DNA from: Candidatus Omnitrophota bacterium
GTDB lineage: Bacteria; Omnitrophota; Gorgyraeia; B26-G9
Length of the DNA stretch: 64,000 bases
Direction: 5' to 3'
Assembly (NCBI GenBank): GCA_043826565.1
Contig: JBDRPX010000023.1
Coordinates: 5,758 to 69,757, forward strand
Of this stretch, positions 4,970-24,720 are shown piece by piece. How positions within the stretch are numbered: position 1 is the first letter of the stretch; the number at the start of each line of letters is the position of its first letter. A model generated the notes under the pieces. It saw only the letters and a program-made list of their open reading frames with translations, ran no database searches and was not told the DNA's origin. The translations under genes and the position numbers were made by a program.

Positions 4970-6446
4970 TAGGTTCCTCTCCTATCTTTAGTGACCCTGC
5001 AAAATAAAAATTATAAATTAATCTCACCCCATTATTAATATTTGTTTGGAACCACTGTTCCTCTTTTACAAGCTGTTGATTTAGACGTCGTGTTATATGA
5101 TTTATCCAAAACAGAATAAATAAAATTTTTATAAGGTTTTTATTTACCCCTATCGTTTTACAGTATCCCGATATTAACTTCTTTTCCCAATCCTCAATAT
5201 TACCATCAAGAAAATCATTTAGAAATAAATTACTAACATCTTCCCCTTTAAAAATTACCTTCCCATAAATAATTAAGTATATAAGATCCATCAATGGCAA
5301 TCCCTCCTTCACCGAAAGATCCCAATCAATAATCCCTTGAATCTTATGCGTCCGTTTATCTACAAGTATATTCTCAATTTTATAATCTCCATGAGACCAT
5401 ACAGATTGAACGGTTTTCCCTATCAGTTCCCTCTTAATTGCATCTGTCAAATCATTCAGCTTTTTTTTGCTATCACCGCTACAATACAAAATTAACCTTT
5501 GGGTGTCTCTAAAAAAAAGCCTTTTCATAATACTCTCATTTAAAACTATGCTATTACTTGTTTTCTTATGGAATCTAGTTAGTAATTCAGCAATAGCTTT
5601 AATAAGTTCATTAAGTTCTTTTCTTGGCAGATTATACGCTATCCCCGGAATCCTTGATTCCAAATAACAAGCCTTTCCGCAAATAATTTTACTATCAATC
5701 GGCTTTGGAACCAGTGAAGCTAGACTACTTCGCTGCAGTTGGTTCAAAATCCTATAATTTATCCTGCCTCTAACTTCGGTCAAATGATTTAAAGGAATTC
5801 TTACTACCCCCTTTTTACCTAAAATTACAGCCGAGAAAGGTTTCCCAATAATAATTTCATTAACCTCATCAAGAGACATTTTCGTTACAACATCATTTAA
5901 AAAATTTGATTGCTCCCTCTGGCCTTTGAATGCGATAACTGCATATGAATTATGAAAATTGGTCATAAATTTTCTACTTAAAAGCCAATTTTTAATACAG
6001 CTTTTCATATCAACCATCCCAGATAAGTCAAAAATATATTTCAGTCTTATCTCTTGCATAGATGCGAGTTCCGGAGTTAATACATAACTATCAAAAGCCT
6101 TAAAACCAATTCTTGTGCAAATTTTAAAAACATCTTTAATGAAAAATTTTCTACTCTTTTTTTTATCCTGTTTCCAAAACAATAAATTTCTATAACTGAA
6201 TTTATTATCAAAAGATATACATAACTTACCATCAGAAGTTAATAGAGAAAACGCCCTGCATGCAATTTTCTCAAGGCTATCTGTTTCAGGAAACTTAAAA
6301 AGATTAAGGATAACCACTTCATAATAAACATGTTGCACACTTACCATGTCTTCAAGACAATTACATGTAATAATATTTTTGTCTTTGCCATTATTTAAAA
6401 AAAGTCCCCAAAGGCTTTTATGCATTCCCCACCCCTTTAAGCTCAT
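4962..6446 (-). CDS. Two-domain protein: unknown N-terminal domain plus C-terminal APH/choline-kinase-like phosphotransferase domain
   Basis: The C-terminal half carries the Brenner motif WSHGDYKIENILV followed by GIIDWDLS (catalytic and Mg-binding Asp). This is the protein-kinase-like fold of the aminoglycoside / choline / ethanolamine kinase family. The N-terminal ~200 aa is not recognisable. Confidence 0.55.
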   Translation of the reverse strand: MSLKGWGMHKSLWGLFLNNGKDKNIITCNCLEDMVSVQHVYYEVVILNLFKFPETDSLEKIACRAFSLLTSDGKLCISFDNKFSYRNLLFWKQDKKKSRKFFIKDVFKICTRIGFKAFDSYVLTPELASMQEIRLKYIFDLSGMVDMKSCIKNWLLSRKFMTNFHNSYAVIAFKGQREQSNFLNDVVTKMSLDEVNEIIIGKPFSAVILGKKGVVRIPLNHLTEVRGRINYRILNQLQRSSLASLVPKPIDSKIICGKACYLESRIPGIAYNLPRKELNELIKAIAELLTRFHKKTSNSIVLNESIMKRLFFRDTQRLILYCSGDSKKKLNDLTDAIKRELIGKTVQSVWSHGDYKIENILVDKRTHKIQGIIDWDLSVKEGLPLMDLIYLIIYGKVIFKGEDVSNLFLNDFLDGNIEDWEKKLISGYCKTIGVNKNLIKILFILFWINHITRRLNQQLVKEEQWFQTNINNGVRLIYNFYFAGSLKIGEEPSD

Positions 6447-8544
6447 ATCGATAATTCATTGCTTCTACCAATCTTTCCGAATCAAATAAGCATTCTCCTG
6501 CCTCCAAAGCCTTTACTATATTTACTAGTTCCCTGGCTGTAACATAATGCAGCTTAAATTTCTCCCCATCATTGCAATGCTCTTCTAATAGATTATATAA
6601 GTTATCTAACCCTCCTTCTAAAAGAAATCTCATGTTTTCTTCTTGACATCCATGCGCGTGTAATTTAATAAACCGAAAATTAGACTCCCCTTCAACATGT
6701 ATGTTTGTATCTATCCATAATTTGAGCCTATGCAGATCGACTGGATCTGTATATCCAATGTTACCGCTTTCAATTGTAGGGCAAAATGCCCCCTTTCTTT
6801 TTTTCCAATTAATTGCCAATGGCCCTTGGATCATCAACAATCTTTTCTTTTCCTTTGTATTAGTCTTAACATTTACCCCCCAGTTATGAGACTTCGGCAA
6901 ATCAGGAATATCTTTAGCGTAATAAATACTATTTACTTTTGCAGTCTGGGTATCACTTGGCACAGACGGAAGAGTGAAATCCGCATAGCAACCCGTATCA
7001 CGCAAAACTTCCAGCTCATTGTTTACCCCGCAGAATTTACCATCTTTTCTAGAGTTTGCAAGCGCCCAATCCCCATGAATAAACCCATATGCAATTTCTC
7101 CTGTTTGCTTGCATCTTGAAAGCATCTTATGATCCCTATTAAGTTTTTCTTTGAAATTTATAAGCTTTTCGGTAAGCATTTCTGGAGTATCATTATCATG
7201 ATGCAAATGAATTTCCACCTCCCCATACCCCTTATTGCAAATATTCCCTAATCCCTCCAATAATTCCGGTGTGTATTCTTCTTCAGGGAAAAAAAATGTA
7301 TATTTGGGGCTCTTTCCTAAAGAATCCTTATGTCTGGAAGCAATATCAGGATAATTTGCTACCCACTGATTAACTCTTTCAAGCCCCTCACTTTTGTTTA
7401 CTCCATTCCACAGAGGCTCAAAATGATCACAGATACAGACAAACAAGTATATAGGTTTTTTTCTGCAGTTTTTTGTAAATTTATTTAACAGTCTCTCAAA
7501 AGCATATCCGAGAAGCCAATATTGAGCGTATCTTATTGATTCGTTAAATTTAAACAGTAAGTTATATATACCCGCAACATGCAAAGCAAATAAAAACAAT
7601 GGCTCATGGTCAAAGCCTATTCTTCCAATTGCAAAATTGTCTACCTGAAAAGGATCATCTGCCGTAGTTACAGCAGATGAGAAACTAAGCTCTCTTACTA
7701 TTGTCTTAATATGATCGTTATAATTACCATTAGGATAGGCGAATGACTCAACTCTACATTTCAATTGCTCCTCAATAGTAGATTTAGATTTTAGAATTTC
7801 CCTTTTCACTTTATCTAGTGGAATTTTAGTTAAGATCGGATGTGTTTCAGTATGCGCCCCGAATTCTACTAATCCAGATTCATGCATTTCTTTAATCTCA
7901 TCCCAATTAAGCATCAGATCCTTGGATTGATTTTCACGATTAGCAGAAAGTAGTTGATCTATGATCTGCTTCAGGATTACTTCTTTCTTTTCCTCATTAA
8001 ATTTCTTCATTTCATTTGAAACGATCTTATAAAAATTAAGTTTTTCATTAAGTGTTGAAATTTTAAAACTCCGATCAAAGATTTCAGGGATCGCCACCTT
8101 AATGTTCTCTGTTTTAGTAAGAGCATGAATTAGTTTATCCGACCATAACATTTTACCTGATCCAATTGTTTCAGTAGTCAGATAAATTATTGCGGGAATT
8201 TTATATTTTTTTAAAATTGGGAATACATTAGAATGAATATTTTTATATCCGTCATCAAAAGTTAGAACAACCAAATTTGCAGACCTATCCTCAGGTCTTA
8301 TATTTAAACACTCTCCCAAAGAAACAAATTTATATTTTTTTAATAAAAACCTGATTTTTGCTTCAAATTCCTCCAGGGTAAGATGCCCCAGCCCCTGGAG
8401 AAATTCATAATAATCATCATCCTGGCTTATAATATTATGTGAAAACAATACCCTCGGAGGATTTTTAAAGATTTTACCAAAAATAAGCCTTACAAAATAA
8501 CCTAATCCGGAATAATAGATCAGTAAAAGCATTAAATTCTTCAA
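6418..8544 (-). CDS. Polysaccharide deacetylase (CE4 / NodB domain) with large C-terminal His-rich domain of unknown function
   Basis: 708 aa. The N-terminal half carries the CE4 motifs LTFDDGY (motif 1), GAHTETHP (motif 3) and FAYPNG. The C-terminal ~370 aa is rich in His/Asp motifs (CDHFEP, HLHHDND, HGDWA, HAHG) and has no obvious family assignment. Confidence 0.7.
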   Translation of the reverse strand: MKNLMLLLIYYSGLGYFVRLIFGKIFKNPPRVLFSHNIISQDDDYYEFLQGLGHLTLEEFEAKIRFLLKKYKFVSLGECLNIRPEDRSANLVVLTFDDGYKNIHSNVFPILKKYKIPAIIYLTTETIGSGKMLWSDKLIHALTKTENIKVAIPEIFDRSFKISTLNEKLNFYKIVSNEMKKFNEEKKEVILKQIIDQLLSANRENQSKDLMLNWDEIKEMHESGLVEFGAHTETHPILTKIPLDKVKREILKSKSTIEEQLKCRVESFAYPNGNYNDHIKTIVRELSFSSAVTTADDPFQVDNFAIGRIGFDHEPLFLFALHVAGIYNLLFKFNESIRYAQYWLLGYAFERLLNKFTKNCRKKPIYLFVCICDHFEPLWNGVNKSEGLERVNQWVANYPDIASRHKDSLGKSPKYTFFFPEEEYTPELLEGLGNICNKGYGEVEIHLHHDNDTPEMLTEKLINFKEKLNRDHKMLSRCKQTGEIAYGFIHGDWALANSRKDGKFCGVNNELEVLRDTGCYADFTLPSVPSDTQTAKVNSIYYAKDIPDLPKSHNWGVNVKTNTKEKKRLLMIQGPLAINWKKRKGAFCPTIESGNIGYTDPVDLHRLKLWIDTNIHVEGESNFRFIKLHAHGCQEENMRFLLEGGLDNLYNLLEEHCNDGEKFKLHYVTARELVNIVKALEAGECLFDSERLVEAMNYRYELKGVGNA

Positions 8545-10985: not shown

Positions 10986-12185
10986 TTAATGAGTTTTCCT
11001 TATTTTAGTAATTACTTTACAAATACAACTGTAGCAAAAAAATAAAAAAGGTTTTATGTCACAAAAGCGAAAATAAACAAAATCCTTTTTAAAGAATATT
11101 ATTTTTTTAATAATCCCCCAATTAAGCGTTTTTTTAAAACCGCTTTTATATAAATTGTTTACTAATCCGTCCTCTTCCAACCAAAGGATACGTCCTTTAC
11201 AGCTTGGTTCCTCTATATATCCCTGTCCGATCATTTCATAATAATATGCTAGAGGAATATTCACCCCGCCTGCGGCAGCAATAGAAGACTGCATATCTAC
11301 ACGCCCGGCAGTTGGCTCAATAATTAAAAATTTCCCGCTTTTTTGATGCCTTTTAAACTCTACAGACCCTATCCCCTGATACCCTACTTTATCAAACAAC
11401 TCTATTGCCTTAGATCTTACTATTTCTGAATAATAATTCTCTGCTATACATGTATTACCGATTTGCGGCAACCATTGCATTAATTTTCTTCCGGTAAAGC
11501 TCAATCTACATCTTGAATTTTTATCATAATACATCAAACAAAAAAATAGATCTGAATCTTCCCCTGGAACCCACTCCTGTATTATTAAAGATACTTTGCA
11601 CTCAATTCCATTTCTTTCAATTATCTCAATCAATTCTTCTTTAGAATTTACGTAATGAGCTTTATTCCCCTGATTATACTTATCCCATTCAAACGTTCTG
11701 TAGCTAGGTTTTACTACACATGGATAAGTAATATTATTAATAAAATCTAAATTCCTTCCCTCATCAAGTATAAAAGATTTAGGAATATTAAATTTTTCTT
11801 TTTGGGCAAATTCAGCAAATAATTCTTTTTTAGAAAAACAATCCATGATTGATCTTGCAGGCATATTAAAAACATAATACTTCTCTAATATATCTTCATT
11901 TTCAGAAACAATTTTTGCATTTTTGTCCCCGGTCGTAAAAAGAACCGGTTTATTTTTCTCTTGAACTGCAATATCTATTAAGGCTTCCACAACCAAATCT
12001 TGTTTATTTATATCCTCGCAAGTTCTCACCTGCCAATATTTACTATGCTTTCCCGGAAAGTCAGAGTCTGAATCCAAGCAGATTACCTTAATCCCTTTTT
12101 GGCCTAACCCCCTCGCTATGCCCAATCCCGCAGGATTTAACCCAATAATAACAGCACTGTGTTGAGAAAATATTTTATCTTTCAT
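10986..12185 (-). CDS. ATP-grasp domain protein (copy 1)
   Basis: 399 aa. Motifs CVVKPSY, IIQEWVPGEDS, FTGRKLMQWLP, GSVEFKR and IIEPTAGR fit the ATP-grasp carboxylate-amine ligase fold. About 45-50% identical by eye to the paralog at 13463-14668. Confidence 0.6.
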   Translation of the reverse strand: MKDKIFSQHSAVIIGLNPAGLGIARGLGQKGIKVICLDSDSDFPGKHSKYWQVRTCEDINKQDLVVEALIDIAVQEKNKPVLFTTGDKNAKIVSENEDILEKYYVFNMPARSIMDCFSKKELFAEFAQKEKFNIPKSFILDEGRNLDFINNITYPCVVKPSYRTFEWDKYNQGNKAHYVNSKEELIEIIERNGIECKVSLIIQEWVPGEDSDLFFCLMYYDKNSRCRLSFTGRKLMQWLPQIGNTCIAENYYSEIVRSKAIELFDKVGYQGIGSVEFKRHQKSGKFLIIEPTAGRVDMQSSIAAAGGVNIPLAYYYEMIGQGYIEEPSCKGRILWLEEDGLVNNLYKSGFKKTLNWGIIKKIIFFKKDFVYFRFCDIKPFLFFCYSCICKVITKIRKTH

Positions 12186-13380
12186 GTAAACTTTTCTTCG
12201 TTTTTTTTATCCTTTTAATATCTTCTTTTTTTATTATTATTTTCCTTAATTTTTTTAAGAAATTATAAATTCCTGCCTTTTTAATTATTCCCTTTAAAAT
12301 CATTTTCCAAATAATCCCAAATCCAAGCACTTTAGATGAAACTGATAGGCTTTTTATGTCATTGCGAAAGATTACTAATCTATAATACAATGGGCACTTT
12401 TTTGTCCAAAGCTGTTTCCACTCATAAAATGGCCCTAAAAAATCATACCTGGTTATTCGACCTGTCTTAAAAATATATTCCAATGTATTTTTTCTAAGCA
12501 ATATTCCCGGGGAATACTTTACGAATTCCGGGTCATAGCCGATTTTCATAGCAAATATTTCATCCCTGAACTCAATTGCTATTTCAAATGCGATCTTACG
12601 ATTATTTAGCTCCAGTAAATATATCCTTAACCAATTATTTTTATATGCTGTTTTTAAATAATCAAAATAAAAATTCTTTATATTTTCCTTGCTTATTACG
12701 GCTGTCCCGGCATCCCCTTTCCAAGCCAAAGACTCAAGCCTAAAACAATCATTAATTATTGCTTCAATATTTTCAGCTTCACTAATAACACTAAATTTTA
12801 ATTCTCCAAGTTTTGCTATTTTCTTTTCTTTTCTTTTTACCGCTCTGGTTAATTCGCGGCTGCGCGCATTCCAATAGGCCTCCCACGTTTCATTAACATC
12901 AATAAACGGGGAACTAAAACTTTCTTCTCCACTAAAAAGCGAATAGTTCTTCCTATGGCCTACTATTGAATGCGCTCTATTTAAAAATTGTGAACTCTGC
13001 GGCAAAGCGTCAAAATCAATATGTATAATTTTATTTTGTTCCATATAATCCAACAGGCACTTTATTACTTCATCCATTTCCTTTCCTGCAACTATATCAA
13101 AAAAAGGAGTATGGTTATTTTGCATCGCGCTTAAGTAAAAATAGTTTTCTCCTAAAAAATCAGCTTTTCTCTTTATCAGAGGTGTAATGCCCTGAATTCT
13201 ACCCTTATCGCTCATAACAAGGATCAATACATCGACTGACTTGCCGAAATTTTTCCACCAATTAAAGAAAAACTCATAAGTTAAAAATGGAGAATGACTT
13301 TCGTTTCTAGAGTGAAAATCATTCCAAACATCTTCAGTTTTTTTAAAATCTTCTAAATTTTTAATTTCCTGGATTATCAT
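12175..13380 (-). CDS. FemAB-like / CelD-like GNAT acyltransferase (PF13480-type, copy 1)
   Basis: 401 aa. The N-terminus (WNDFHSRNESHSPFLTYEFFFNWWKNFGK...VLILVMSDKGRIQGITPLIKRK) is typical of BioF2-like/FemAB-related proteins of PEP-CTERM EPS loci. A paralog lies at 14680-15789. Confidence 0.65.
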   Translation of the reverse strand: MIIQEIKNLEDFKKTEDVWNDFHSRNESHSPFLTYEFFFNWWKNFGKSVDVLILVMSDKGRIQGITPLIKRKADFLGENYFYLSAMQNNHTPFFDIVAGKEMDEVIKCLLDYMEQNKIIHIDFDALPQSSQFLNRAHSIVGHRKNYSLFSGEESFSSPFIDVNETWEAYWNARSRELTRAVKRKEKKIAKLGELKFSVISEAENIEAIINDCFRLESLAWKGDAGTAVISKENIKNFYFDYLKTAYKNNWLRIYLLELNNRKIAFEIAIEFRDEIFAMKIGYDPEFVKYSPGILLRKNTLEYIFKTGRITRYDFLGPFYEWKQLWTKKCPLYYRLVIFRNDIKSLSVSSKVLGFGIIWKMILKGIIKKAGIYNFLKKLRKIIIKKEDIKRIKKTKKSLHER

Positions 13381-17948: not shown

Positions 17949-17998
17949 GTGTTCCTTAGAGTTACGCGTTAACGCGTTTTCGCGTTTGCGTGTTTAAT
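17949..17998. repeat. GC-rich repeat flanking four-helix-bundle gene 1 (contains perfect palindrome ACGCGTTAACGCGT)
   Basis: gagttACGCGTTAACGCGTtttcgcgtttgcgtg is an island of CGCG units in an AT-rich genome. It is imperfectly complementary to 18385-18432 and encodes the C-terminal tail of the four-helix-bundle ORF. Confidence 0.6.
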
Positions 17999-18381
17999 TT
18001 TGCACTTTTTAGATATTTTTTTAAAGCTGTTATCATTCTTCTAGTTTTTTCCGACATTTCATATAAAGAATCAAACTCTGGCTTTTTAATATATTTCTGA
18101 TCTAGAGCAACATATAAATTACACTGAACTTCTGAGGCAGATCTTCTCGCATAAGTTAAAAACCTTATAAACTCCGCATTAGAATCGCTATCAAAACCTT
18201 CTGCAATATTATTCATTATTGAAACTGCAGCTCTCTGGATTTGTCCTGTCAAACCAAAATCTTTGCTAAAATCGCCAGTTTTACTTATATTATAAATTTC
18301 TTTTACTAATATACGCGCTTCTTGCCAAACATTAAGGTCTTCAAATCTCTTTACCCCCATTATAAACTCTCCAACACGCAA
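17962..18381 (-). CDS. Four helix bundle protein (TIGR02436 family; formerly '23S rRNA intervening sequence protein'), copy 1
   Basis: Family hallmarks are FEDLNVWQEA, SIMNNIAEGF and FLTYARRSASEVQCNLYVA. The likely true start is the internal MGVKRFEDL (~18360), giving about 132 aa. Confidence 0.8.
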   Translation of the reverse strand: MRVGEFIMGVKRFEDLNVWQEARILVKEIYNISKTGDFSKDFGLTGQIQRAAVSIMNNIAEGFDSDSNAEFIRFLTYARRSASEVQCNLYVALDQKYIKKPEFDSLYEMSEKTRRMITALKKYLKSAKLNTQTRKRVNA

Positions 18382-18432
18382 ACTCCCAACGCGCTAACCC
18401 GTAACTCGTTAACTCGTTAACCCAAGTTTCTT
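18382..18432. repeat. GC-rich repeat flanking four-helix-bundle gene 1 (right arm; tandem AACTCGTTA x2)
   Basis: cacgcaaactcccaacgcgctaacccgtaactcgttaactcgttaaccc. Its reverse complement pairs imperfectly with 17955-17995. Confidence 0.55.
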
Positions 18433-19407
18433 TTTCGCAAAATCAACTATTTCCGCACTTCCCGGCTCATTAATCTTCGCTAAACCAAGTTCTCGGGACA
18501 TAACTCCGCTTCTAACCATTTCCGCGATCTCAAACGCGTATGGATGAAACCCATACTTATCAATATGCACATGGTTAGCAAAAGAATTTAAAAGACAATT
18601 TGTTGAATTTTTATCCACATCTTGCGGGGCACACCACCCAAGCTCTCCGATTTTCTCAACGATCTTTTCTTCATCATAATCCATAAAAGCCAGCGGACTA
18701 ACATTATAAGGGAACAGGTTCTTGTCCTTAAACTGCTCCGCACTTAAAAAATACTTATTCATATCATCACCGGCAATTTCCTGCATTGGTTTTCTTAATA
18801 ATTCCTGTGTCGTTTTAAAAAGCTCCGGGTTTATTTTCATAATCGAGGATCGAATCGGAGCCTGTCCCGGAGACCAACCCCAGGCCATTATCGGAATTCT
18901 TTTTTCCAACGAAATCTTTAAAAATATAAATTTAACCAATCCGATACAAGAGGTACACATCGTACTGGCCCGCTCCAGGGTCTTCGGAGAATACATTGGA
19001 TGAGTTGCCGCATGCTGAAATATTTTCTTTAATAAAGTAAAATCCGGTTTAAAAACAAGGCTATCCACCCCGATATTCTCCGTAACAGTCCGGATATTTT
19101 TAAACGCCTGCTCGGAAATAAACCCATTATCCAAAACCAAAGCCAGGACTTTAAGTTTAAACACCTCTTTCATCATATATAAAGTATATGTGCTATCCTT
19201 ACCTCCGGAATAAGATACGGTGCAGTCATAATCGCCATTACCCTGCACCTGTTTTAATAATTCCTTAAATTTATTAAAATACAAAGCTTTGTCCTCATTC
19301 AGTTTCTCTGCGCCTTTAAAATTCAGACAAAAGTTACAAACCCCCTTATCATCAAAGGTTATTCCGGGAAAACTTTCCGGCAATACACATTTTATACACC
19401 GTTTCAT
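18409..19407 (-). CDS. N-acetyl sugar amidotransferase (WbuX/PseA-like PP-loop ATP pyrophosphatase)
   Basis: 332 aa. The N-terminus carries a CxxC...CxxC cluster (CIKCVLPESFPGITFDDKGVCNFC). The PP-loop VSYSGGKDST follows. This architecture matches the LPS-biosynthesis amidotransferase family (TIGR03573-like). Confidence 0.7.
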   Translation of the reverse strand: MKRCIKCVLPESFPGITFDDKGVCNFCLNFKGAEKLNEDKALYFNKFKELLKQVQGNGDYDCTVSYSGGKDSTYTLYMMKEVFKLKVLALVLDNGFISEQAFKNIRTVTENIGVDSLVFKPDFTLLKKIFQHAATHPMYSPKTLERASTMCTSCIGLVKFIFLKISLEKRIPIMAWGWSPGQAPIRSSIMKINPELFKTTQELLRKPMQEIAGDDMNKYFLSAEQFKDKNLFPYNVSPLAFMDYDEEKIVEKIGELGWCAPQDVDKNSTNCLLNSFANHVHIDKYGFHPYAFEIAEMVRSGVMSRELGLAKINEPGSAEIVDFAKKKLGLTS

Positions 19408-19466
19408 GTTTAAGCTCCTTTTGCACGAACCTTATGGCTACAAGCTTCATGCTACAGGCTACAAGA
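19408..19466. repeat. Repeat flanking four-helix-bundle gene 2 (GCTACAAG/GCTACAGG units)
   Basis: ggctacaagcttcatgctacaggctacaagatc. Its reverse complement (cctgtagc) recurs in the right arm at 19855-19925. Confidence 0.55.
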
Positions 19467-19877
19467 TCATTTTAGATCCTTAGCTACTGTTTTGCGAAAA
19501 TTATATAGTTTTTTGCCTAGTTTCTCTAACTCTTGAATCCAATTTTTATATTTGATCTCATTACTAAAAGACTTTGTATCAAATAATAATTCTAAATGTT
19601 CCTTTGTTTCGTCACAAGAAGCTATTGCATAAGTCAAATAGCGTATAAACTCTTGTTGATACGATTTTCTCCCAAACCCCTCAACTATAGTAGCAACTAT
19701 TGATTTGGATGATCTTCTAATTTGACTACCTTGCTCATACATCTCAAATTTAGGTAAATCCTGCAGCGTCATCTCATGCATCTTTACCGCTAAATCATGA
19801 GCCAATCTATAAATTTCTAAGTCTTTATAACTTTGCATTTTTCCTGCGTCCTGAGTCCTGTAGCCTGAGGCTTTCAT
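19467..19877 (-). CDS. Four helix bundle protein (TIGR02436 family), copy 2
   Basis: 136 aa. YKDLEIYRLAHDLAVKMH...VATIVEGFGRKSYQQEFIRYLTYAIASCDE is the second common sequence type of this family. Confidence 0.8.
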   Translation of the reverse strand: MKASGYRTQDAGKMQSYKDLEIYRLAHDLAVKMHEMTLQDLPKFEMYEQGSQIRRSSKSIVATIVEGFGRKSYQQEFIRYLTYAIASCDETKEHLELLFDTKSFSNEIKYKNWIQELEKLGKKLYNFRKTVAKDLK

Positions 19878-19925
19878 ACCTTTCAGCTTGCATCCTGCGG
19901 CTTGCGGCCTGCAGCCAGGAGAGCT
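19855..19925. repeat. GC-rich repeat flanking four-helix-bundle gene 2 (right arm; overlaps the 3' end of the ligase gene)
   Basis: cctgagtcctgtagcctgagg...cagcttgcatcctgcggcttgcggcctgcagcc. Repeated cctg/gcctg units encode the last ~10 codons (AAGRKPQDAS) of the AMP-ligase. Confidence 0.55.
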
Positions 19926-21454
19926 TTCAACTGCTCTCGCTTTATTTTTCCACTCGCCGTTTTTGGCAGAGATTGCACCATCGCAACTTTTTTCGGCATT
20001 TTAAAAGCGGCTAGGTTCTTTTTACAAAAAATAAGAATATCTTTTTCCGTAACATTCACATCGTCAAGCACAACAAAAAGCTTTATCGCTTCGCCAAGTA
20101 TTTCATCAGGGATACCGACTACCGCACACTCAGCAATTCCTGGCAATTGAGAAACAACTTCTTCTAATTCTAATGGACTGATCCTGTTGGCACCGCTTTT
20201 AATCATATCCTTTTTACGGCTAATCAGATAAATAAACCCATCCGCGTCAATACGCGCAAGATCTCCGGTAAACAAATCCCCCTCACGTAAAACCCCCTTG
20301 GTTTGTTCCGGATCATCCCAATATCCCTGCATAATATTTTTTCCGCGAGCAACAATTTCGCCGATTTCTCCGACTTCCACCGGTTCTCCCGTTTCTCTAA
20401 GCACATCAAGCTGTACTCCGGGAATAGCTTTGCCGATAGAACCAGCTTTTTCCGGAAAATCATCAGGAGAAAGAAAACTCAAACGAGCAGAAGCTTCTGT
20501 CTGCCCATACATCACATAAAACTTTATCTCCGGGATTATTTGCCGGAACTCTTTTATCAAGCCCGCAGACATCGCTCCTCCGGCCTGGGTAACATAACGC
20601 AATTTAGGAAATTGATATTTTCGTATTGCTGATTTCTTTAAAAATATATTAAAATGAGTCGGGACTCCGGCAAAACCGGTAACTTCTTCCGTAGCCATCG
20701 TATCTAAAATCACATTAGGAAATACAAAACGGTTGTCGATAATAAGAGTTCCCCCGGCTCTTATATGCGTAGTTAATAAAGAATTGCCATAGGAATAGTA
20801 AAACGGCAATACGACCATAATTTTGTCTTCTGCTGTAAGCCTCAGATAGCTGATAATAGACTCTGCATTTTCCGCTAAATTTTCATGCGAAAGCATTACT
20901 CCCTTAGGTTTGCCTGTAGTCCCGGAGGTATATATAATCATCGCCAGATCGCTGGCGCTTAGCTGAGGGCTGATGGCTAATGGCTCATAGTTTTCACTAT
21001 AATTAATATCATCTATTTGTAATGCAATAATATCCTGATTGATTAAAACTAAAGCTTCTTCTACAACTTTTTTGTGTTTATTGTCAGTAACTAGTACCCT
21101 AGGGGTGCAATCAGTCAAAAGCAATGCTAACTCTCGGGAAACAAGCTGACTATTTAAAGCTACAACACCCCCCCCGATTTTTAAAATCCCAAAGTAGGCC
21201 ACCAGATAATCAATACTATTATCCAAAAACAAAACTACCCGGTCTCCTTTAGATACCCCCTGGTCTCTTAAATACATAGCCAAGACATCAGACCATGCGC
21301 TAAGCTGCGCATAAGTACAGCTTGATTTCTGATGAACTGCCGCGATTTTATCCGGATATCGCTGAGTACTTTCTCGTAAAAATCCATGAATCATCATATT
21401 AACACCAGACTCCGAGTTATGAATTATTGATTTTAGATTGTATAAAAACCTCAA
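19883..21454 (-). CDS. AMP-dependent synthetase/ligase (acyl- or aminoacyl-AMP forming; adenylation enzyme)
   Basis: 523 aa. The AMP-binding signature IIYTSGTTGKPKGV is present. The C-terminal PKTASGKIKR is the conserved A10 lysine motif. Confidence 0.85.
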   Translation of the reverse strand: MRFLYNLKSIIHNSESGVNMMIHGFLRESTQRYPDKIAAVHQKSSCTYAQLSAWSDVLAMYLRDQGVSKGDRVVLFLDNSIDYLVAYFGILKIGGGVVALNSQLVSRELALLLTDCTPRVLVTDNKHKKVVEEALVLINQDIIALQIDDINYSENYEPLAISPQLSASDLAMIIYTSGTTGKPKGVMLSHENLAENAESIISYLRLTAEDKIMVVLPFYYSYGNSLLTTHIRAGGTLIIDNRFVFPNVILDTMATEEVTGFAGVPTHFNIFLKKSAIRKYQFPKLRYVTQAGGAMSAGLIKEFRQIIPEIKFYVMYGQTEASARLSFLSPDDFPEKAGSIGKAIPGVQLDVLRETGEPVEVGEIGEIVARGKNIMQGYWDDPEQTKGVLREGDLFTGDLARIDADGFIYLISRKKDMIKSGANRISPLELEEVVSQLPGIAECAVVGIPDEILGEAIKLFVVLDDVNVTEKDILIFCKKNLAAFKMPKKVAMVQSLPKTASGKIKREQLKALLAAGRKPQDAS

Positions 21455-21671
21455 TATTCTTCAGCGAATCAAGATTATCCGGTGTCAATTCTTCATCCTC
21501 AACTTTGATTGTGAAGGTTTCCTGTATAAAATCAACGAGTTCCATAATCCCCGTAGAATCAATAATCCCCTGTTCTAAGAAAGAATCCTCATCGTTTATA
21601 CTTCTATCCTCCGCGCCCATTAAAAAACTACTCTTTATAAATTGCCTAACTTTGTCTTTAACATCCATCAC
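21417..21671 (-). CDS. Acyl/aminoacyl carrier protein (DltC/ACP-like)
   Basis: 84 aa. GIIDSTGIMELVDFIQETF has a Ser in a helix-II-like context (phosphopantetheine site). It overlaps the ligase start by 38 nt, which indicates translational coupling. Confidence 0.6.
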   Translation of the reverse strand: MMDVKDKVRQFIKSSFLMGAEDRSINDEDSFLEQGIIDSTGIMELVDFIQETFTIKVEDEELTPDNLDSLKNIEVFIQSKINNS

Positions 21672-21695
21672 GAATAACTCCTATTATATTGAAGT

Positions 21696-22166
21696 CTAGT
21701 CATCAATCACAAATCTTTCATCCGCATTCTCTTCATGTCTAATCTCATCAATCTGATGCTTTTTCCCCGGCCCGGCAAAAAGCTGGTTAGGATAGTTCAG
21801 AACCAGTCCGGGAGCCTTGCCGATATTTTTGTAAGCATGGACAACACCCGGAGGAACCAGGGCGATTACAGGCTCATCTTCGGCAAACACAATTGTTGTT
21901 TTCAACCTAAATGTTTTGCTGTCCTTTCTATTATCCCAAAGAAATAACTTAAACGAAGAAGTGCCTAAAAAACAAAAATAATCAGTTTGATATGTATGTT
22001 CATGCGGCCCCCGCACAACATTCTGATGAGTCATAGACAGATACGACATAACCGGATATATATCCTTAGCCATCTCATCATGACGAAAAATCTCAAAAAG
22101 CCATCCTCGTTCATCGGTAAATTTCTTTACCTTTTTTATCACTACCCCATCAATTCCAACTTCCAT
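21696..22166 (-). CDS. RmlC-like cupin (dTDP-4-dehydrorhamnose 3,5-epimerase family / WxcM-like sugar epimerase)
   Basis: 156 aa. VIKKVKKFTDERGWLFEIFRHDE resembles the RmlC N-terminal substrate-binding motif (F.DERGFF.E.F). The size fits the short cupin epimerases/isomerases. Confidence 0.6.
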   Translation of the reverse strand: MEVGIDGVVIKKVKKFTDERGWLFEIFRHDEMAKDIYPVMSYLSMTHQNVVRGPHEHTYQTDYFCFLGTSSFKLFLWDNRKDSKTFRLKTTIVFAEDEPVIALVPPGVVHAYKNIGKAPGLVLNYPNQLFAGPGKKHQIDEIRHEENADERFVIDD

Positions 22167-22210
22167 ATTTTCTCTAACCTTTTTTATCTTTTAATTTTTT
22201 TATTTTTCTA

Positions 22211-22238
22211 TACGCTAAACGCTATCCGCTCTACGCTA
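22211..22238. repeat. Short intergenic CGCTA-unit repeat (tacgctaaacgctatccgctctacgctat)
   Basis: Three ACGCTA-type units form a GC-rich island between the RmlC-like and GT2-like genes. Its style matches the arms that flank the four-helix-bundle genes. Confidence 0.4.
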
Positions 22239-22253
22239 TTACTTTTATACTCC

Positions 22254-23255
22254 TTAATAATAAAGCTTAAGCAGATCTTTTTTTACCTTTTCCATCTGGA
22301 AAAAATCATATTTATCATCCTGGTTACCGATAACCGGAACCCACGACATCAAGGCGATCATTAACAACTGCGGCACTACTCTATATTTATTTAAATAGTC
22401 CAGCGCCACTTTACGCGCTTTATATTTCTCTTTGTTTTTAATTAAATATTTTGCCCAAAAAAGATAACTGTTTTCTATTTGCCCTTTAAGACAGTCCTCA
22501 TTTTTTTTCTCATTATCCTCCAGAGAATTCAATAAGTGCTCAAAAGAAGCGATTCTATTCTCAACACTACGGCTTATATAGTAAGAGACTTTATACGCGT
22601 CAAAAAACCGGCTAACCAAAACCCTGTTGATACAGCCTACTTGCGCGTGTTTAGCCATATTAAAAAGTAATTCTATATCCTCATAACCATGTGCTTGTTC
22701 TGGAAAGGGCCCGTAGAAAGAATACGATTGATTTCTAATAAGCATTGTTGAAAACAGTTTAAACCTGCTCATGATCAGGTATCTCTGCCCTTGCTCAATC
22801 ACAAAAGCCTCTTGATTTTTCCCTCCCCGAAAAAAATCATTCATCTGGAAAAATGACGAATTTACCAAGCCGTTCTTATCAACAATATCAAAATCACAGC
22901 AAACACCGAAAGCGGTCATATTTCTTTCTAAAAACTTAACTTTTTCTTCTAACACCCCCGGATGCCAGATATCACCGGCCGCGAGGATGGAAAAATATTT
23001 CCCTTCAGTAAGTTTCAAGGTATTGTTCAATATTTTTCCTTTAGAAACCCCTTTTTGCTGGATAACAAGTTTAATCCTGTCACGGTATGCTTCAATAAAT
23101 TGGCTTAACTCTTCGGTAATAGTGTTGACAATCAAAAAAATCTCAACGTTTTTGTATGTCTGATGTAAAACACTATTAAAAGTTTGCGCAAGATTAAGGA
23201 CATCTTCCCGAGATACAATAAGAATACTGACTTTTTCTACCTGATAAAAACTCAT
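22254..23255 (-). CDS. GT2-like (GT-A fold) protein with degenerate catalytic motifs
   Basis: 333 aa. The N-terminal VSILIVSRED...SVLHQTYKNVEIFLIVN is GT2-like. The usual DDGS is missing. The canonical DSDDIWHP 'DXD' segment reads AAGDIWHPGVLEEKV. Confidence 0.45.
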   Translation of the reverse strand: MSFYQVEKVSILIVSREDVLNLAQTFNSVLHQTYKNVEIFLIVNTITEELSQFIEAYRDRIKLVIQQKGVSKGKILNNTLKLTEGKYFSILAAGDIWHPGVLEEKVKFLERNMTAFGVCCDFDIVDKNGLVNSSFFQMNDFFRGGKNQEAFVIEQGQRYLIMSRFKLFSTMLIRNQSYSFYGPFPEQAHGYEDIELLFNMAKHAQVGCINRVLVSRFFDAYKVSYYISRSVENRIASFEHLLNSLEDNEKKNEDCLKGQIENSYLFWAKYLIKNKEKYKARKVALDYLNKYRVVPQLLMIALMSWVPVIGNQDDKYDFFQMEKVKKDLLKLYY

Positions 23256-24205
23256 AAAATTTCCTTAAACCAATCATAAGTAACCTCCAAACCCTTATCA
23301 AAATTTATATCAGGTGTATAATTCATCAGCTGTTTAGCTTTATCAATATTGGCATGGCTTTTAAAAACATCTCCCATGCGGATCGGCAGAAAAGCCGGTT
23401 CAATTGCTTTGCCGGCAAGAGCATTCACAACTTCAACTATCCTTAAAACCGTAACACTATCACCACAGGCCACATTAAATACTTCCTTAGAAATTCCGGG
23501 AACCGTCGCGGCCAAAATATTTGCTTTAACTACGTTCTTTACAAAAGTGAAATCGCGTGACTGCTTGCCGTTTCCAAATATTGGAGGCTGTTTATCTTTT
23601 AAAATACACGCGATAAACTTTGGAATAACTACTGCGTATTCATCATCTAAAGCTTGCCGGGGACCAAAAACATTAAAATAACGCAAGGCTACTGTTTCCA
23701 CTCCGAAATTTTCACTAAAAATACGGCAATAATATTCTCCGGCCAGCTTAGACAATGCATAGGGAGAAATCAGCAATGGGTAATGCGTTTCCGTCTGCGG
23801 AAACTTATCCGTGTCCCCATACACTGAACTTGAGGATGCCAGCACTAGTCTTTTTACGCCGCATTGCTTAGCTGCCCTTAACAAATTAACCGTACCATCA
23901 ATGTTAACTCTATTATACTCATAAGGATTTTTCATCGATTTAGGAACACTTCTTAATGCCGCCTGATGCAAAACATAATCAACCCCCTCACAAGCTTTAA
24001 CACAAGCCTCATAATCGCAAATATCACCTCTAATCAGCGAATAGCGATTAGCGTCTAGCGAATAGTCCGCTACAAACGCGAGATTTTCCTCTTTACCGCT
24101 AAAGAAATTATCCAAAACAACAACAGACTCTCCCTTTTTTAATAATTCTTCCACAATATGGGAACCGATAAATCCCGCCCCGCCGGTAACTAAATATTTG
24201 GACAT
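23252..24205 (-). CDS. NAD-dependent epimerase/dehydratase (UDP-sugar 4-epimerase, WbpP/Cap1J-like extended SDR)
   Basis: 317 aa. The Rossmann motif VTGGAGFIGSH is present. The catalytic YALSKLAGE (YxxxK) also matches. Confidence 0.85.
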   Translation of the reverse strand: MSKYLVTGGAGFIGSHIVEELLKKGESVVVLDNFFSGKEENLAFVADYSLDANRYSLIRGDICDYEACVKACEGVDYVLHQAALRSVPKSMKNPYEYNRVNIDGTVNLLRAAKQCGVKRLVLASSSSVYGDTDKFPQTETHYPLLISPYALSKLAGEYYCRIFSENFGVETVALRYFNVFGPRQALDDEYAVVIPKFIACILKDKQPPIFGNGKQSRDFTFVKNVVKANILAATVPGISKEVFNVACGDSVTVLRIVEVVNALAGKAIEPAFLPIRMGDVFKSHANIDKAKQLMNYTPDINFDKGLEVTYDWFKEIL

Positions 24206-24303
24206 TTTCGTACTCCTTTGTTAGATTGTTAGCCAGTTAGCCAGTTGGCCAGTTGCCAGTCAAGCCGGTTGGCCCGTAAGCTAGTCAAGCCGGTTAAAAA
24301 AAT
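24206..24303. repeat. GC-rich repeat flanking four-helix-bundle gene 3 (AGCCAGT heptamer units; CAAGCCGGTT x2)
   Basis: gttagccagttagccagttggccagttgccagtcaagccggttggcccgtaagctagtcaagccggtt. The segment agttggccagt is the exact reverse complement of actggccaact in the right arm. Confidence 0.6.
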
Positions 24304-24666
24304 TTAATTTGCTTTTAAATATCTAATAAAACCACTTATTAATTTTCTAGTCTCTTCTGTTTGCAAATAAATCTCTTGAAACAATTCTTTATCTACATAA
24401 TTAAGATCTAAAGCTATATACATAATGCATTGCACTTCTGAACATGACCTTTTGGAGTATGAAAGAAATCTACAAAACTCTGTTTTGCTTGAACTATCAA
24501 ACCCCTCTGCTATATTATTCATTATTGACACAGAAGCCCTTTGAATCTGATCTCTTAATCCCCAATCCCTTGCAAATTCTTTTTGAGAAGTTATGTTGTA
24601 TATCTTTTTGTTCAGTTGCCTAGCCATTTTCCAGGATTCAATGTCTTCAAATCTATTTATTTTCAT
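24304..24666 (-). CDS. Four helix bundle protein (TIGR02436 family), copy 3
   Basis: 120 aa. FEDIESWKMARQL, SIMNNIAEGF and FLSYSKRSCSEVQCIMYIA match the family. Confidence 0.8.
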   Translation of the reverse strand: MKINRFEDIESWKMARQLNKKIYNITSQKEFARDWGLRDQIQRASVSIMNNIAEGFDSSSKTEFCRFLSYSKRSCSEVQCIMYIALDLNYVDKELFQEIYLQTEETRKLISGFIRYLKAN

Positions 24667-24720
24667 CTCAAACCCAACTAGTCAACCGGTCAACCGGCTT
24701 ACTGGCCAACTCGATAACTT
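24667..24720. repeat. Repeat flanking four-helix-bundle gene 3 (right arm)
   Basis: caactagtcaaccggtcaaccggcttactggccaactcgataac carries the palindrome aaccggtt-like units. It is complementary to parts of 24206-24303. Confidence 0.55.

Follow-up and report, generated by a model that had tools for sequence, protein, structure and literature searches.

How three genes of a protein family named after its rRNA context have come to lie in the junctions of a polysaccharide-type operon, each enclosed by short tandem repeats, is the question raised by the 64-kb stretch of contig JBDRPX010000023.1 of a Candidatus Omnitrophota bacterium analysed here (the window, by which the whole stretch is meant; GC content ~37%, 0.368). 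With moderate confidence, each of the three may be regarded as a mobile or exchangeable cassette of the intervening sequence (IVS) type, in which the two repeat arms form a duplex at the transcript level and the pentameric protein encoded between them probably binds these arms. IVSs borne by rRNA are already known; what is new here is an element of this type that resides in mRNA and follows a definite repeat grammar, namely about five units of 7-9 nt with an AGTY core upstream, their reverse complement downstream, and a basic protein, pentameric by homology, in between.

The genes of the window lie on the minus strand throughout, and those at 15.9-26 kb form a polysaccharide-type string encoding, in the order of transcription, Ugd, an NAD-epimerase, a GT2 protein, an RmlC-like protein, an ACP, an acyl-CoA ligase, a PP-loop ATPase-like protein, and an AsnB-like protein. 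The original prediction placed three TIGR02436-family genes in junctions of this operon, in its own orientation, and this holds. Each of the open reading frames (ORFs) was found on the minus strand between co-oriented biosynthetic genes, namely c3 between the Ugd and epimerase genes (24304-24666; 120 amino acids, pI 8.8), c2 between the ligase and PP-loop genes (19467-19838; 123 amino acids, pI 8.9), and c1 between the PP-loop and AsnB-like genes (17962-18360; 132 amino acids, pI 9.6). The likely start codons of c1 and c2 are the ATG at 18360 and the ATG at 19838, rather than those of the longest ORFs (17962-18381 for c1 and up to 19877 for c2). All three matched the four-helix-bundle family far above the cutoffs, with PF05635 scores of 93-123 bits (123.2, 92.8, and 114.0 bits; cutoff 33.8) and TIGR02436 scores of 114.2, 91.4, and 107.9 bits (cutoff 24) over profile positions 1-109. 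PF05635 was the sole domain of the cassettes, and no fourth copy was retrieved from the 64-kb window by tblastn. The identity of 30-40% that had been claimed among the three copies applies to the divergent c2 (~32% to either of the others) and not to c1 and c3, which are 54.6% identical. By sequence similarity, c3 matches the structures 2GSC (E = 2e-11) and 2RLD (E = 6e-5), each deposited with five chains. The 64-kb window contained no Rfam match, nor did PADLOC models return a defence-system match.

As predicted, GC-rich tandem units were present on both sides of each gene (GC 0.43-0.70 in the arms against 0.368 in the window), with a period of 8 nt around c1 and c3 and of 7 nt around c2 according to Tandem Repeats Finder (TRF). 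The arms measured 31-74 nt and not the 40-90 bp proposed. That the left and right arms are partial reverse complements was borne out by gene-spanning inverted repeats of 17-28 nt with 82-90% complementarity in each cassette, by arm-arm duplex energies of -50.3 (c1), -52.4 (c2), and -61.1 kcal/mol (c3), and by the corresponding z-scores against dinucleotide shuffles (-5.3, -4.7, and -6.3). When whole cassettes (~500-530 nt) were folded, the proposed stem enclosing the ORF was kept in both the minimum free energy and the centroid folds, in three cases out of three.

The arms fit closely between the host genes. In the case of c3, the upstream arm (24671-24719, minus strand; GC 0.51) begins 1 nt past the stop codon of the Ugd gene and consists of six 8-nt units, AGTTATCG AGTTGGCC AGTAAGCC GGTTGACC GGTTGACT AGTTGGGT, recovered both as a TRF period of 8 and as inverted repeats, and carrying a chain of six RGT cores. 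Its reverse complement, the downstream arm (24222-24295, minus strand), comprises about nine 8-nt units, AACCGGCT TGACTAGC ... AACTGGCC AACTGGCT AACTGGCT (TRF period 8, 4.2 copies), with a chain of five ACY cores, and ends right before the Shine-Dalgarno site of the epimerase gene. Upstream of c2, two minus-strand arrays of 7-nt units were found. The outer one (19886-19918; GCAGGCC GCAAGCC GCAGGAT GCAAGCT) encodes the last ~11 residues of the ligase, the stop codon of which follows directly (19883-19885), and the ligase orthologues part exactly after ...KREELK, the onset of the array, in all four genomes compared. The inner one (19842-19872; CAGGCTA CAGGACT CAGGACG) bears a chain of four CARG cores. 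Both are complemented by the downstream arm (19432-19466, minus strand; CTTGTAG CCTGTAG CATGAAG CTTGTAG; core CYTG), which stops before the Shine-Dalgarno site of the PP-loop gene. Similarly, the 8-nt units of the c1 upstream arm (18361-18421, minus strand; GTTAACGA GTTAACGA GTTACGGG ... AGTTTGCG ...; recovered by TRF and as inverted repeats) encode, with the first of them, the last three codons and the stop codon of the PP-loop gene, and its 3' end bears the Shine-Dalgarno site of c1. The complementary downstream arm (17955-17996, minus strand; AAACACGC AAACGCGA AAACGCGT TAACGCGT AACTC) encodes the C-terminal ~11 residues of c1 and finishes 6 nt ahead of the AsnB-like gene's start codon; this cassette has four cores. 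Hence the prediction that the repeats supply terminal codons is correct for the ligase and for c1, and extends to the PP-loop gene.

The three cassettes are thus inserted co-oriented in the spacer between the stop codon of a host gene and the Shine-Dalgarno site of the next. The codons of the arms replace the last residues of the host gene, so that the cassettes are presumably transcribed within the host polycistronic mRNA; promoter-like matches were near chance in a terminator and promoter scan, which gives no evidence for cassette-internal promoters. Identity of the arms with intrinsic terminators or REP-type (repetitive extragenic palindromic) stabilisers was rejected, as no terminator-like site coincides with any arm and the pairing is long-range, across ~400 nt. 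Nor are the repeats generic REP-like elements within the window, in line with the prediction; six of its nine TRF regions with a period of 7-8 nt and G+C-containing units are cassette arms, the remaining ones being one intergenic scar, described below, and two weak in-gene periodicities.

The three cassettes exemplify locally, in degenerate form, a stereotyped module that is widespread; this accords with the prediction of a recurring element rather than recent duplicates, as the same design surrounds PF05635 members in many phyla. A pattern scan with one genome per species gave 80 loci, and a metagenome scan, aimed at close relatives of c3, gave 80 more. The latter, in which no c3 relative above 58% identity was found, was used as a replication sample, and about 150 cassettes were analysed in all. 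The loci from the pattern scan belong to many phyla, among them Omnitrophota, Bacteroidota, Acidobacteriota, Planctomycetota, Chloroflexota, Nitrospirota, and Desulfobacterota. As controls, segments laid out in the same way were taken from shifted positions in the loci under study. Complementarity was measured between the 100 nt upstream and the 100 nt downstream of the ORF and expressed as a duplex z-score, since raw duplex energies are confounded by GC content across genomes (p = 0.057). The median z-score was -2.96 for the cassettes and -0.17 for the displaced controls (Mann-Whitney p = 2e-15), with values below -3 in 48% and 1.9%, respectively; a more sensitive arm-alignment score exceeded the 99th percentile of the controls in 75% of the cassettes.

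Clean arrays, such as (AGTCTGG)n upstream and (CCAGACT)n downstream, were present upstream in 39% of the cassettes (3% of the displaced controls), downstream in 41% (2%), and on both sides in 22% (0.2%), and in 11% (0%) the downstream unit was the upstream unit in reverse complement. Their periods were exclusively 7, 8, or 9 nt, with a median of 4.4 units. The most enriched 3-mers were AGT upstream (3.9-fold) and its complement ACT downstream (3.7-fold); AAGT, AGTT, and AGTC led the 4-mers upstream, and ACTT, AACT, and GACT were among the top ones downstream (4.5- to 5.8-fold). Three or more AGT in a chain, spaced 7-9 nt apart, occurred in 39% of the upstream flanks (1% of the controls) and three or more ACT in 38% of the downstream flanks (0%), and the reversed combinations, with AGTY and RACT swapped between the flanks, stayed at background level. 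This enrichment and spacing indicate that the unit consists of an AGTY core and a variable spacer of 3-5 nt. The longest core chain had a mode of five on both arms (31 and 30 cassettes), against one or two in the background. Among the cassettes of the window, c3 illustrates this pattern best. The conserved core, the fixed period of 7-9 nt, the number of about five units, and the tracking of protein clades by the units, described below, point to a sequence-specific recognition, probably by the encoded pentamer, and/or a process at the DNA level, rather than to pairing alone. The polarity of AGTY and RACT is inherent to an inverted repeat and the same on both DNA strands, and hence cannot by itself tell RNA from DNA.

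As to the location of the module, the upstream neighbour was co-oriented with the cassette gene in 121 out of 133 cases and the downstream neighbour in 115 out of 140. The median gaps to these neighbours (67 nt upstream and 43 nt downstream) are essentially the arms. Two copies were found within ~6 kb in nine of the 159 loci, always on the same strand. A specificity for polysaccharide loci was rejected, as the 148 neighbours span 134 Pfam families, among which sugar-nucleotide enzymes, ruvC/ruvA, ABC transporters, and carbamoyltransferases (including OTCase) recur. None of 20 sampled loci without coding neighbours lies in rRNA, and c1-c3 are all located between protein-coding genes and not in a 23S or 16S rRNA helix. 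A location in rRNA, to which the family owes its name, was not encountered in the sample drawn, a stereotyped operon-junction cassette being found instead. PF05635 members bracketed by heptamer arrays also occur on plasmids of cyanobacteria and Riemerella, with the arms (AGTCAGG)n / (CCTGACT)n in N. punctiforme, (GGGTGTA)n / (TACACCC)n in Calothrix, and (GGTTCAA)n / (TTGAACC)n in Riemerella.

The IVSs of 23S rRNA (Leptospira, Coxiella burnetii, Brucella, Haemophilus) share with these cassettes an S23p/PF05635 protein, stem-forming terminal inverted repeats, and tandem heptamers by the ORF start. The copy number of the heptamers varies, the elements measure about 430-760 nt, and a selfish or mobile origin is suspected by the field. 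Indeed, the likeness to rRNA IVSs put forward in the prediction extends to the tandem heptamers beside the ORF start inside the inverted-repeat stem of C. burnetii, the 23S IVS of which (428 nt, with an S23p ORF and a 28-bp terminal inverted-repeat stem) carries GACAGAT heptamers, three or four in tandem, immediately before the ORF, in a strain-variable copy number (PMC4990558). RNase III cleaves this IVS within the stem, as seen in vitro and mapped by rapid amplification of cDNA ends (RACE), and its authors leave open whether it is a 'remnant of transposition' or a 'mobile element whose ORF encodes a mobility factor' (PMC4990558). In contrast to these IVSs, the host RNA of c1-c3 is a polycistronic mRNA instead of 23S helix 25 or 45, and the arms take the place of host stop codons and border on ribosome-binding sites. 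Also, the Coxiella ORF is decaying and probably untranslated, whereas the cassette protein is elsewhere under clear purifying selection.

The favoured explanation may be worded as follows. A promoter-less gene for a basic four-helix-bundle protein of ~120 amino acids of the Avd/IVP family lies between two arms, each a short tandem array of roughly five units of 7-8 nt, the downstream one being the reverse complement of the upstream one. In the transcript, the arms would pair into an imperfect helix of 30-45 bp from which the ORF is looped out. With such a helix, the cassette could reside in an operon, or in rRNA, without much burden, and a site for processing would probably arise. The protein of the cassette, a pentameric ring by homology, would most likely recognise the AGTY-type cores of its own arms, about five per arm, and its binding would control pairing or processing, or its own translation, and/or the maintenance and spread of the cassette. 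The pentamer is suggested by relatives. PMC4990558, citing Lin 2006, describes Xanthomonas XCC0516 (2GSC) as a homopentamer ring, and the PF05635 family is homologous to Avd of the diversity-generating retroelements (DGRs), a basic four-helix-bundle pentamer that binds nucleic acids (PMC10053308). This likeness to Avd (bAvd, PDB 4DWL) extends to weak or faint bAvd Pfam matches for alleles of two related genomes (L162 and L164, see below). The cassettes differ from DGRs in that no reverse transcriptase or template/variable repeat pair adjoins c1-c3, no reverse transcriptase domain being present in any gene called on the 18.5-kb segment of the source contig, and Avd genes are not described as array-bracketed.

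Concerning the evolution of the cassettes, comparison showed that arms and gene are inherited and exchanged as one unit. The repeat period is clade-specific and the arm unit tracks the protein clade, the median protein identity being 65% among pairs with the same arm unit and 48% among pairs with different units (p = 4e-84). Fourteen loci of an Ignavibacteria-like clade have a cassette between ruvC and ruvA, the arms being AAAGATTR / YAATCTTT, with cassette protein identities (65-94%) parallel to those of RuvA (67-97%) and dN/dS values of 0.05-0.2 at dS values from 0.5 to saturated. These dN/dS values indicate that the protein is functional and that the arms outlast neutral decay. A column-wise covariation analysis of this clade was abandoned, as the unit is conserved and the copy number varies, which makes the pairing columns ambiguous. 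Of these loci (L131, L106, L057, and 11 further ones), several have an ORF that runs into the downstream array, which adds 13-25 repeat-encoded C-terminal residues (for example, ...KITKLRVLIFSIF); expansion of the array hence alters the length of the protein.

Turnover was apparent from the operons of three relatives with conserved gene order (L162, from a PVC-group bacterium; L163, from Omnitrophota; and L164), and the comparison of orthologous junctions that had been proposed indeed revealed both presence and absence. The Ugd-epimerase junction, harbouring c3 in the window, is a plain 28-nt spacer without array in L162, and the PP-loop-AsnB junction, harbouring c1 in the window, has no gene in L164, where only a solo array of four ACTTGTG-type units is present. 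This array (L164, 3823-3879) reads ACTTGTG ACTTGTG ACCTTGTG TCCTTGT, shares its core CTTG with the c2-type downstream arm, and is followed by a small hairpin (catcacc gaa ggtgatg) over the ribosome-binding region of the AsnB gene. At the ligase-PP-loop junction, each of the four genomes has a cassette, with different arm units and alleles of only 30-37% identity, the flanking enzymes being 62-79% identical. The closest of these relatives to c1 (47%) is the L162 allele, which occupies the ligase-PP-loop rather than the PP-loop-AsnB junction. Finally, the junction between the GT2 and RmlC-like genes of the window contains a putative cassette scar (22196-22240, minus strand), a gene-less upstream-type array (AGCGTAG AGCGGAT AGCGTTT AGCGTAT) with an A-rich leader. 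It aligns over 42 nt with the upstream arm and leader of the L164 cassette, with a score of 49 as compared with at most 27 among 500 shuffles, and the same junction is a 10-nt spacer in L162. Repeats without a four-helix-bundle gene thus do exist, in this scar and in the L164 junction, and bear in part on a condition that the prediction named as speaking against it.

A role of the arms in RNA is favoured by the co-orientation, by the placement from stop codon to ribosome-binding site, and by the experimental precedent of the rRNA IVSs. Several observations weigh against it. A helix kept in the sense transcript should give more G.U than A.C mismatches, and the arm mismatches were balanced, with 220 G.U and 217 A.C in 110 cassettes under symmetric scoring and 30 and 31 in the best 29 cassettes, so that a signature of selection on sense RNA is lacking; the arms of the window itself gave 9 G.U and 3 A.C, numbers too small to weigh. 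Many near-perfect arm copies fit copying or homogenising at the DNA level just as readily. Within the ruvC-ruvA clade, the unit variants, judged by eye, do not follow a mirrored order in the two arms, and what is conserved there is the same unit in inverted form, not a precise helix. About 10-20% of the cassettes are antisense to their neighbours. A case in point is L169 on a Nostoc edaphicum plasmid (NZ_CP054697.1, locus 1501-1869), antisense between the genes for the beta and alpha subunits of ribonucleotide reductase; its very clean arms, (AGTAGGG)x7 / (CCCTACT)x5, could still pair in the host transcript, from which the ORF is not translatable. Pairing and cleavage in mRNA are predicted from folding and the rRNA precedent. 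Binding of the repeats by the protein, in its turn, is suggested by the numerical match of five cores with a pentamer, the conserved core, and the basic pI, and this match is loosened by unit counts that span three to seven or more, by the mostly four-unit arrays of Xanthomonas (PMC4692102), and by the other cores of c2 and of the L164 and L162 alleles.

Part of this evidence suits a mobile element at the DNA level, in which the inverted arrays would be terminal repeats with iterated binding sites, the protein an end-binder recruiting host enzymes, and RNA pairing incidental, comparable with the multi-site ends of some transposons and the REP pairs flanking RAYTs (REP-associated tyrosine transposases). 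We consider this possible, if less probable, as the primary nature of the cassette; an RNA helix as in rRNA IVSs and DNA-level ends with iterated protein sites are compatible, not exclusive, readings. It would explain the presence and absence at orthologous junctions, the replacement of alleles at one junction, the c1-like allele elsewhere in L162, and the scar, and it agrees with the symmetric mismatch spectrum, the near-perfect arms, the conserved inward-pointing core at both ends, the co-inheritance of arms and gene, and the situation in X. campestris, where one gene-adjacent array stands among 186 dispersed arrays with the same unit. However, no target-site duplication of at least 5 nt was found at the boundaries of c1-c3, the empty sites being too diverged to define exact ends, and no transposase, recombinase, or nuclease domain was found in the cassette proteins or their adjoining genes, the neighbours being biosynthetic. 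With respect to the hallmarks of insertion sequences and miniature inverted-repeat transposable elements (MITEs), terminal inverted repeats are present at c1-c3, but as tandem arrays that differ between copies. Near-identical multi-copy elements were absent from every sampled genome (the copies of the window are 32-55% identical, with different arms), and a scan of viral contigs returned no relatives and hence no sign of carriage by phages. Moreover, the ruvC-ruvA clade shows long vertical persistence under purifying selection, and a symmetric DNA element has no need of the strong co-orientation with host transcription. The arms could also be ordinary slippage-prone simple repeats or REP-like intergenic stabilisers, with a fortuitous adjacency to the gene. 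Heptamer repeats are over-represented generally in bacterial intergenic DNA and gene-less arrays exist, but the excess of arrays over the displaced controls on one side, on both sides, and as reverse complements, the complementarity of the flanks, the orientation-specific cores, the share of cassette arms among the TRF regions of the window, and the empty orthologous site without array already disfavour this explanation, which is highly improbable.

Ring proteins that bind tandem RNA motifs offer a further comparison. The trp RNA-binding attenuation protein (TRAP) is a ring-shaped homo-oligomer, an 11-mer, of which the number of subunits matches that of short tandem (G/U)AG cores with variable spacers in single-stranded RNA. 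By analogy, the PF05635 ring might be a post-transcriptional regulator that wraps single-stranded tandem cores in mRNA leaders, with the flanking arrays as autoregulatory operators, the complementary arm as an anti-operator, and gene-less arrays upstream of other genes as its regulon. The conserved core with its 3-5 nt spacer, the period of 7-9 nt, the number of about five units, the pentameric ring homologues, and the basic pI would fit, as would the downstream arm abutting the ribosome-binding site of the next gene and the heptamer arrays found directly before start codons in Beggiatoaceae and between genes in Xanthomonas and Nostoc. Such a regulator alone is quite unlikely, since it does not explain why a reverse-complement array is kept beyond the gene, on its far side, in ~75% of the cassettes, the single gene-less array of the window is scar-like, and the different units of the three cassettes of one operon would require three separate regulons. 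Furthermore, TRAP is a mechanistic analogue only, with an unrelated fold, 11 instead of five subunits, and no complementary second array, and repeat binding by PF05635 proteins is putative.

The cassettes also bear on the short tandem repeats known from other bacteria. The paper of Rehm et al. (PMC4692102) reports GGGAATC in Xanthomonas, mostly as four units, and GGGGACT in Nostoc, and cites three Calothrix heptanucleotides; that of MacGregor (PMC4679880) reports TAACTGA right before start codons in Beggiatoaceae, cyanobacteria, and Bacteroidetes. The reverse complements of two of these units bear the same kind of core (GGGGACT, AGTCCCC; TAACTGA, TCAGTTA). The intergenic heptamers, including the short tandemly repeated repetitive (STRR) sequences of cyanobacteria, resemble the arms in unit length, in their ~4-5 units, and in their vicinity to start and stop codons. 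They differ in that they are described as gene-less direct arrays, read as G-quadruplex formers or sites of an unknown regulator, and no inverted pair around a gene is reported in the searchable papers. In the supplementary table of Rehm et al., the array GGGAATC GGGAGTG GAGAATC GGGAATC, 6 nt from bccP, overlaps the annotated start of XCC0516. It is one of 186 X. campestris arrays, for which the chance of such an adjacency is ~6%. A term search of PMC4692102 and PMC4679880 gave no mention of the PF05635 family, and no description of a non-rRNA cassette, or of a link between heptamer repeats and PF05635, was found in the full-text literature, subscription literature not being searchable.

As in REP/REPIN-RAYT systems, the gene of the cassette stands alone between cognate repeats in inverted orientation. 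A dispersal of such repeats in gene-less form, a further trait of those systems, is suggested by XCC0516 with its 186 GGGAATC arrays, by the scar, the only gene-less array of the 64-kb window, and by the solo arrays. RAYTs differ in being HUH Y1 transposase-like and REPs in being single imperfect palindromes, whereas the cassette protein is a small helical bundle without known catalytic site and the arms are tandem arrays of 7-9 nt units. It may be speculated, with low confidence, that PF05635 pentamers are the missing partners of the over-represented intergenic tandem repeats of 7-9 nt (cyanobacterial STRR, Xanthomonas GGGAATC, Beggiatoaceae TAACTGA). The ring would then bind about five AGTY-type cores, the array-bracketed gene would be the 'master copy' of a REP/RAYT-like repeat-protein system colonising operon junctions and rRNA helices, and the gene-less arrays would be dispersed binding or processing sites.

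Members of PF05635 usually carry the annotation "four helix bundle protein" or "S23 ribosomal protein", and a 2024 survey of insertions in rRNA of the candidate phyla radiation describes the family as uncharacterised in function (PMC11270868). The repeat grammar gives a concrete hypothesis for the ligand of these proteins and a candidate explanation for the over-representation of heptamer repeats, noted since 1990 and still unexplained. In this way, two old puzzles become directly testable, namely what the IVS/S23p/Avd-like proteins do and what the heptamer repeats of bacteria mean. The origin of IVSs may likewise be viewed anew, rRNA being one landing site of a general cassette. Given the homology of PF05635 with Avd, the grammar may also inform how Avd engages nucleic acids. 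For annotation, it matters that host genes have their C-termini altered by the arms, which may also divide operon transcripts.

Some further observations concern the surroundings and relatives of the cassettes. The in-gene periodicities at 24036-24065 and 20962-20985 were rejected as cassette parts, as they are not insertions relative to orthologues. The former, in the epimerase gene (codons ~47-57), has a 7-nt periodicity (CTATTCG CTAGACG CTAATCG CTATTCG) that resembles, by eye, the L164-type downstream-arm unit and is ~75-80% complementary to the scar array at 22196-22240, which follows 1.8 kb later in the transcript. Compared with the L162 orthologue, no sequence has been inserted here, although the encoded residues differ there, and the periodicity may be due to chance or to a templated patch. 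An Omnitrophota metagenome-assembled genome (JAGLQQ010000271; L002, 613-984) contains the relative closest to c3 (82%), which has related AGTTRRCC units and lies in another context, upstream of a MerR-like gene and a Wza-like export gene and not of an epimerase gene. It contains an in-frame stop at codon 106, beyond which the C-terminal helix of the family continues, and may be a recent pseudogene or an assembly error. In L163, an AbiEii-family gene and an AAA_14/DUF4143 ATPase gene (5238-6679 and 11698-12921) occur near cassette-bearing junctions, which suggests that the polysaccharide region is a general hotspot where accessory genes insert. Lastly, some PF05635 members are found close to CRISPR repeats or cas genes, and a 2013 paper names 23S_rRNA_IVP among CRISPR-associated candidates (PMC3936711). 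In L035 (6190-6300), with two PF05635 members, CRISPR-DR7 repeats lie 2.8 kb downstream. On a Pseudanabaena galeata plasmid (NZ_CP112875.1; L172, locus 1504-1863), a member lies between cas6 and cas4, with direct instead of inverted arrays as flanks, namely at least 14 copies of AAAGCTA upstream and (AAAAGCC)n downstream.

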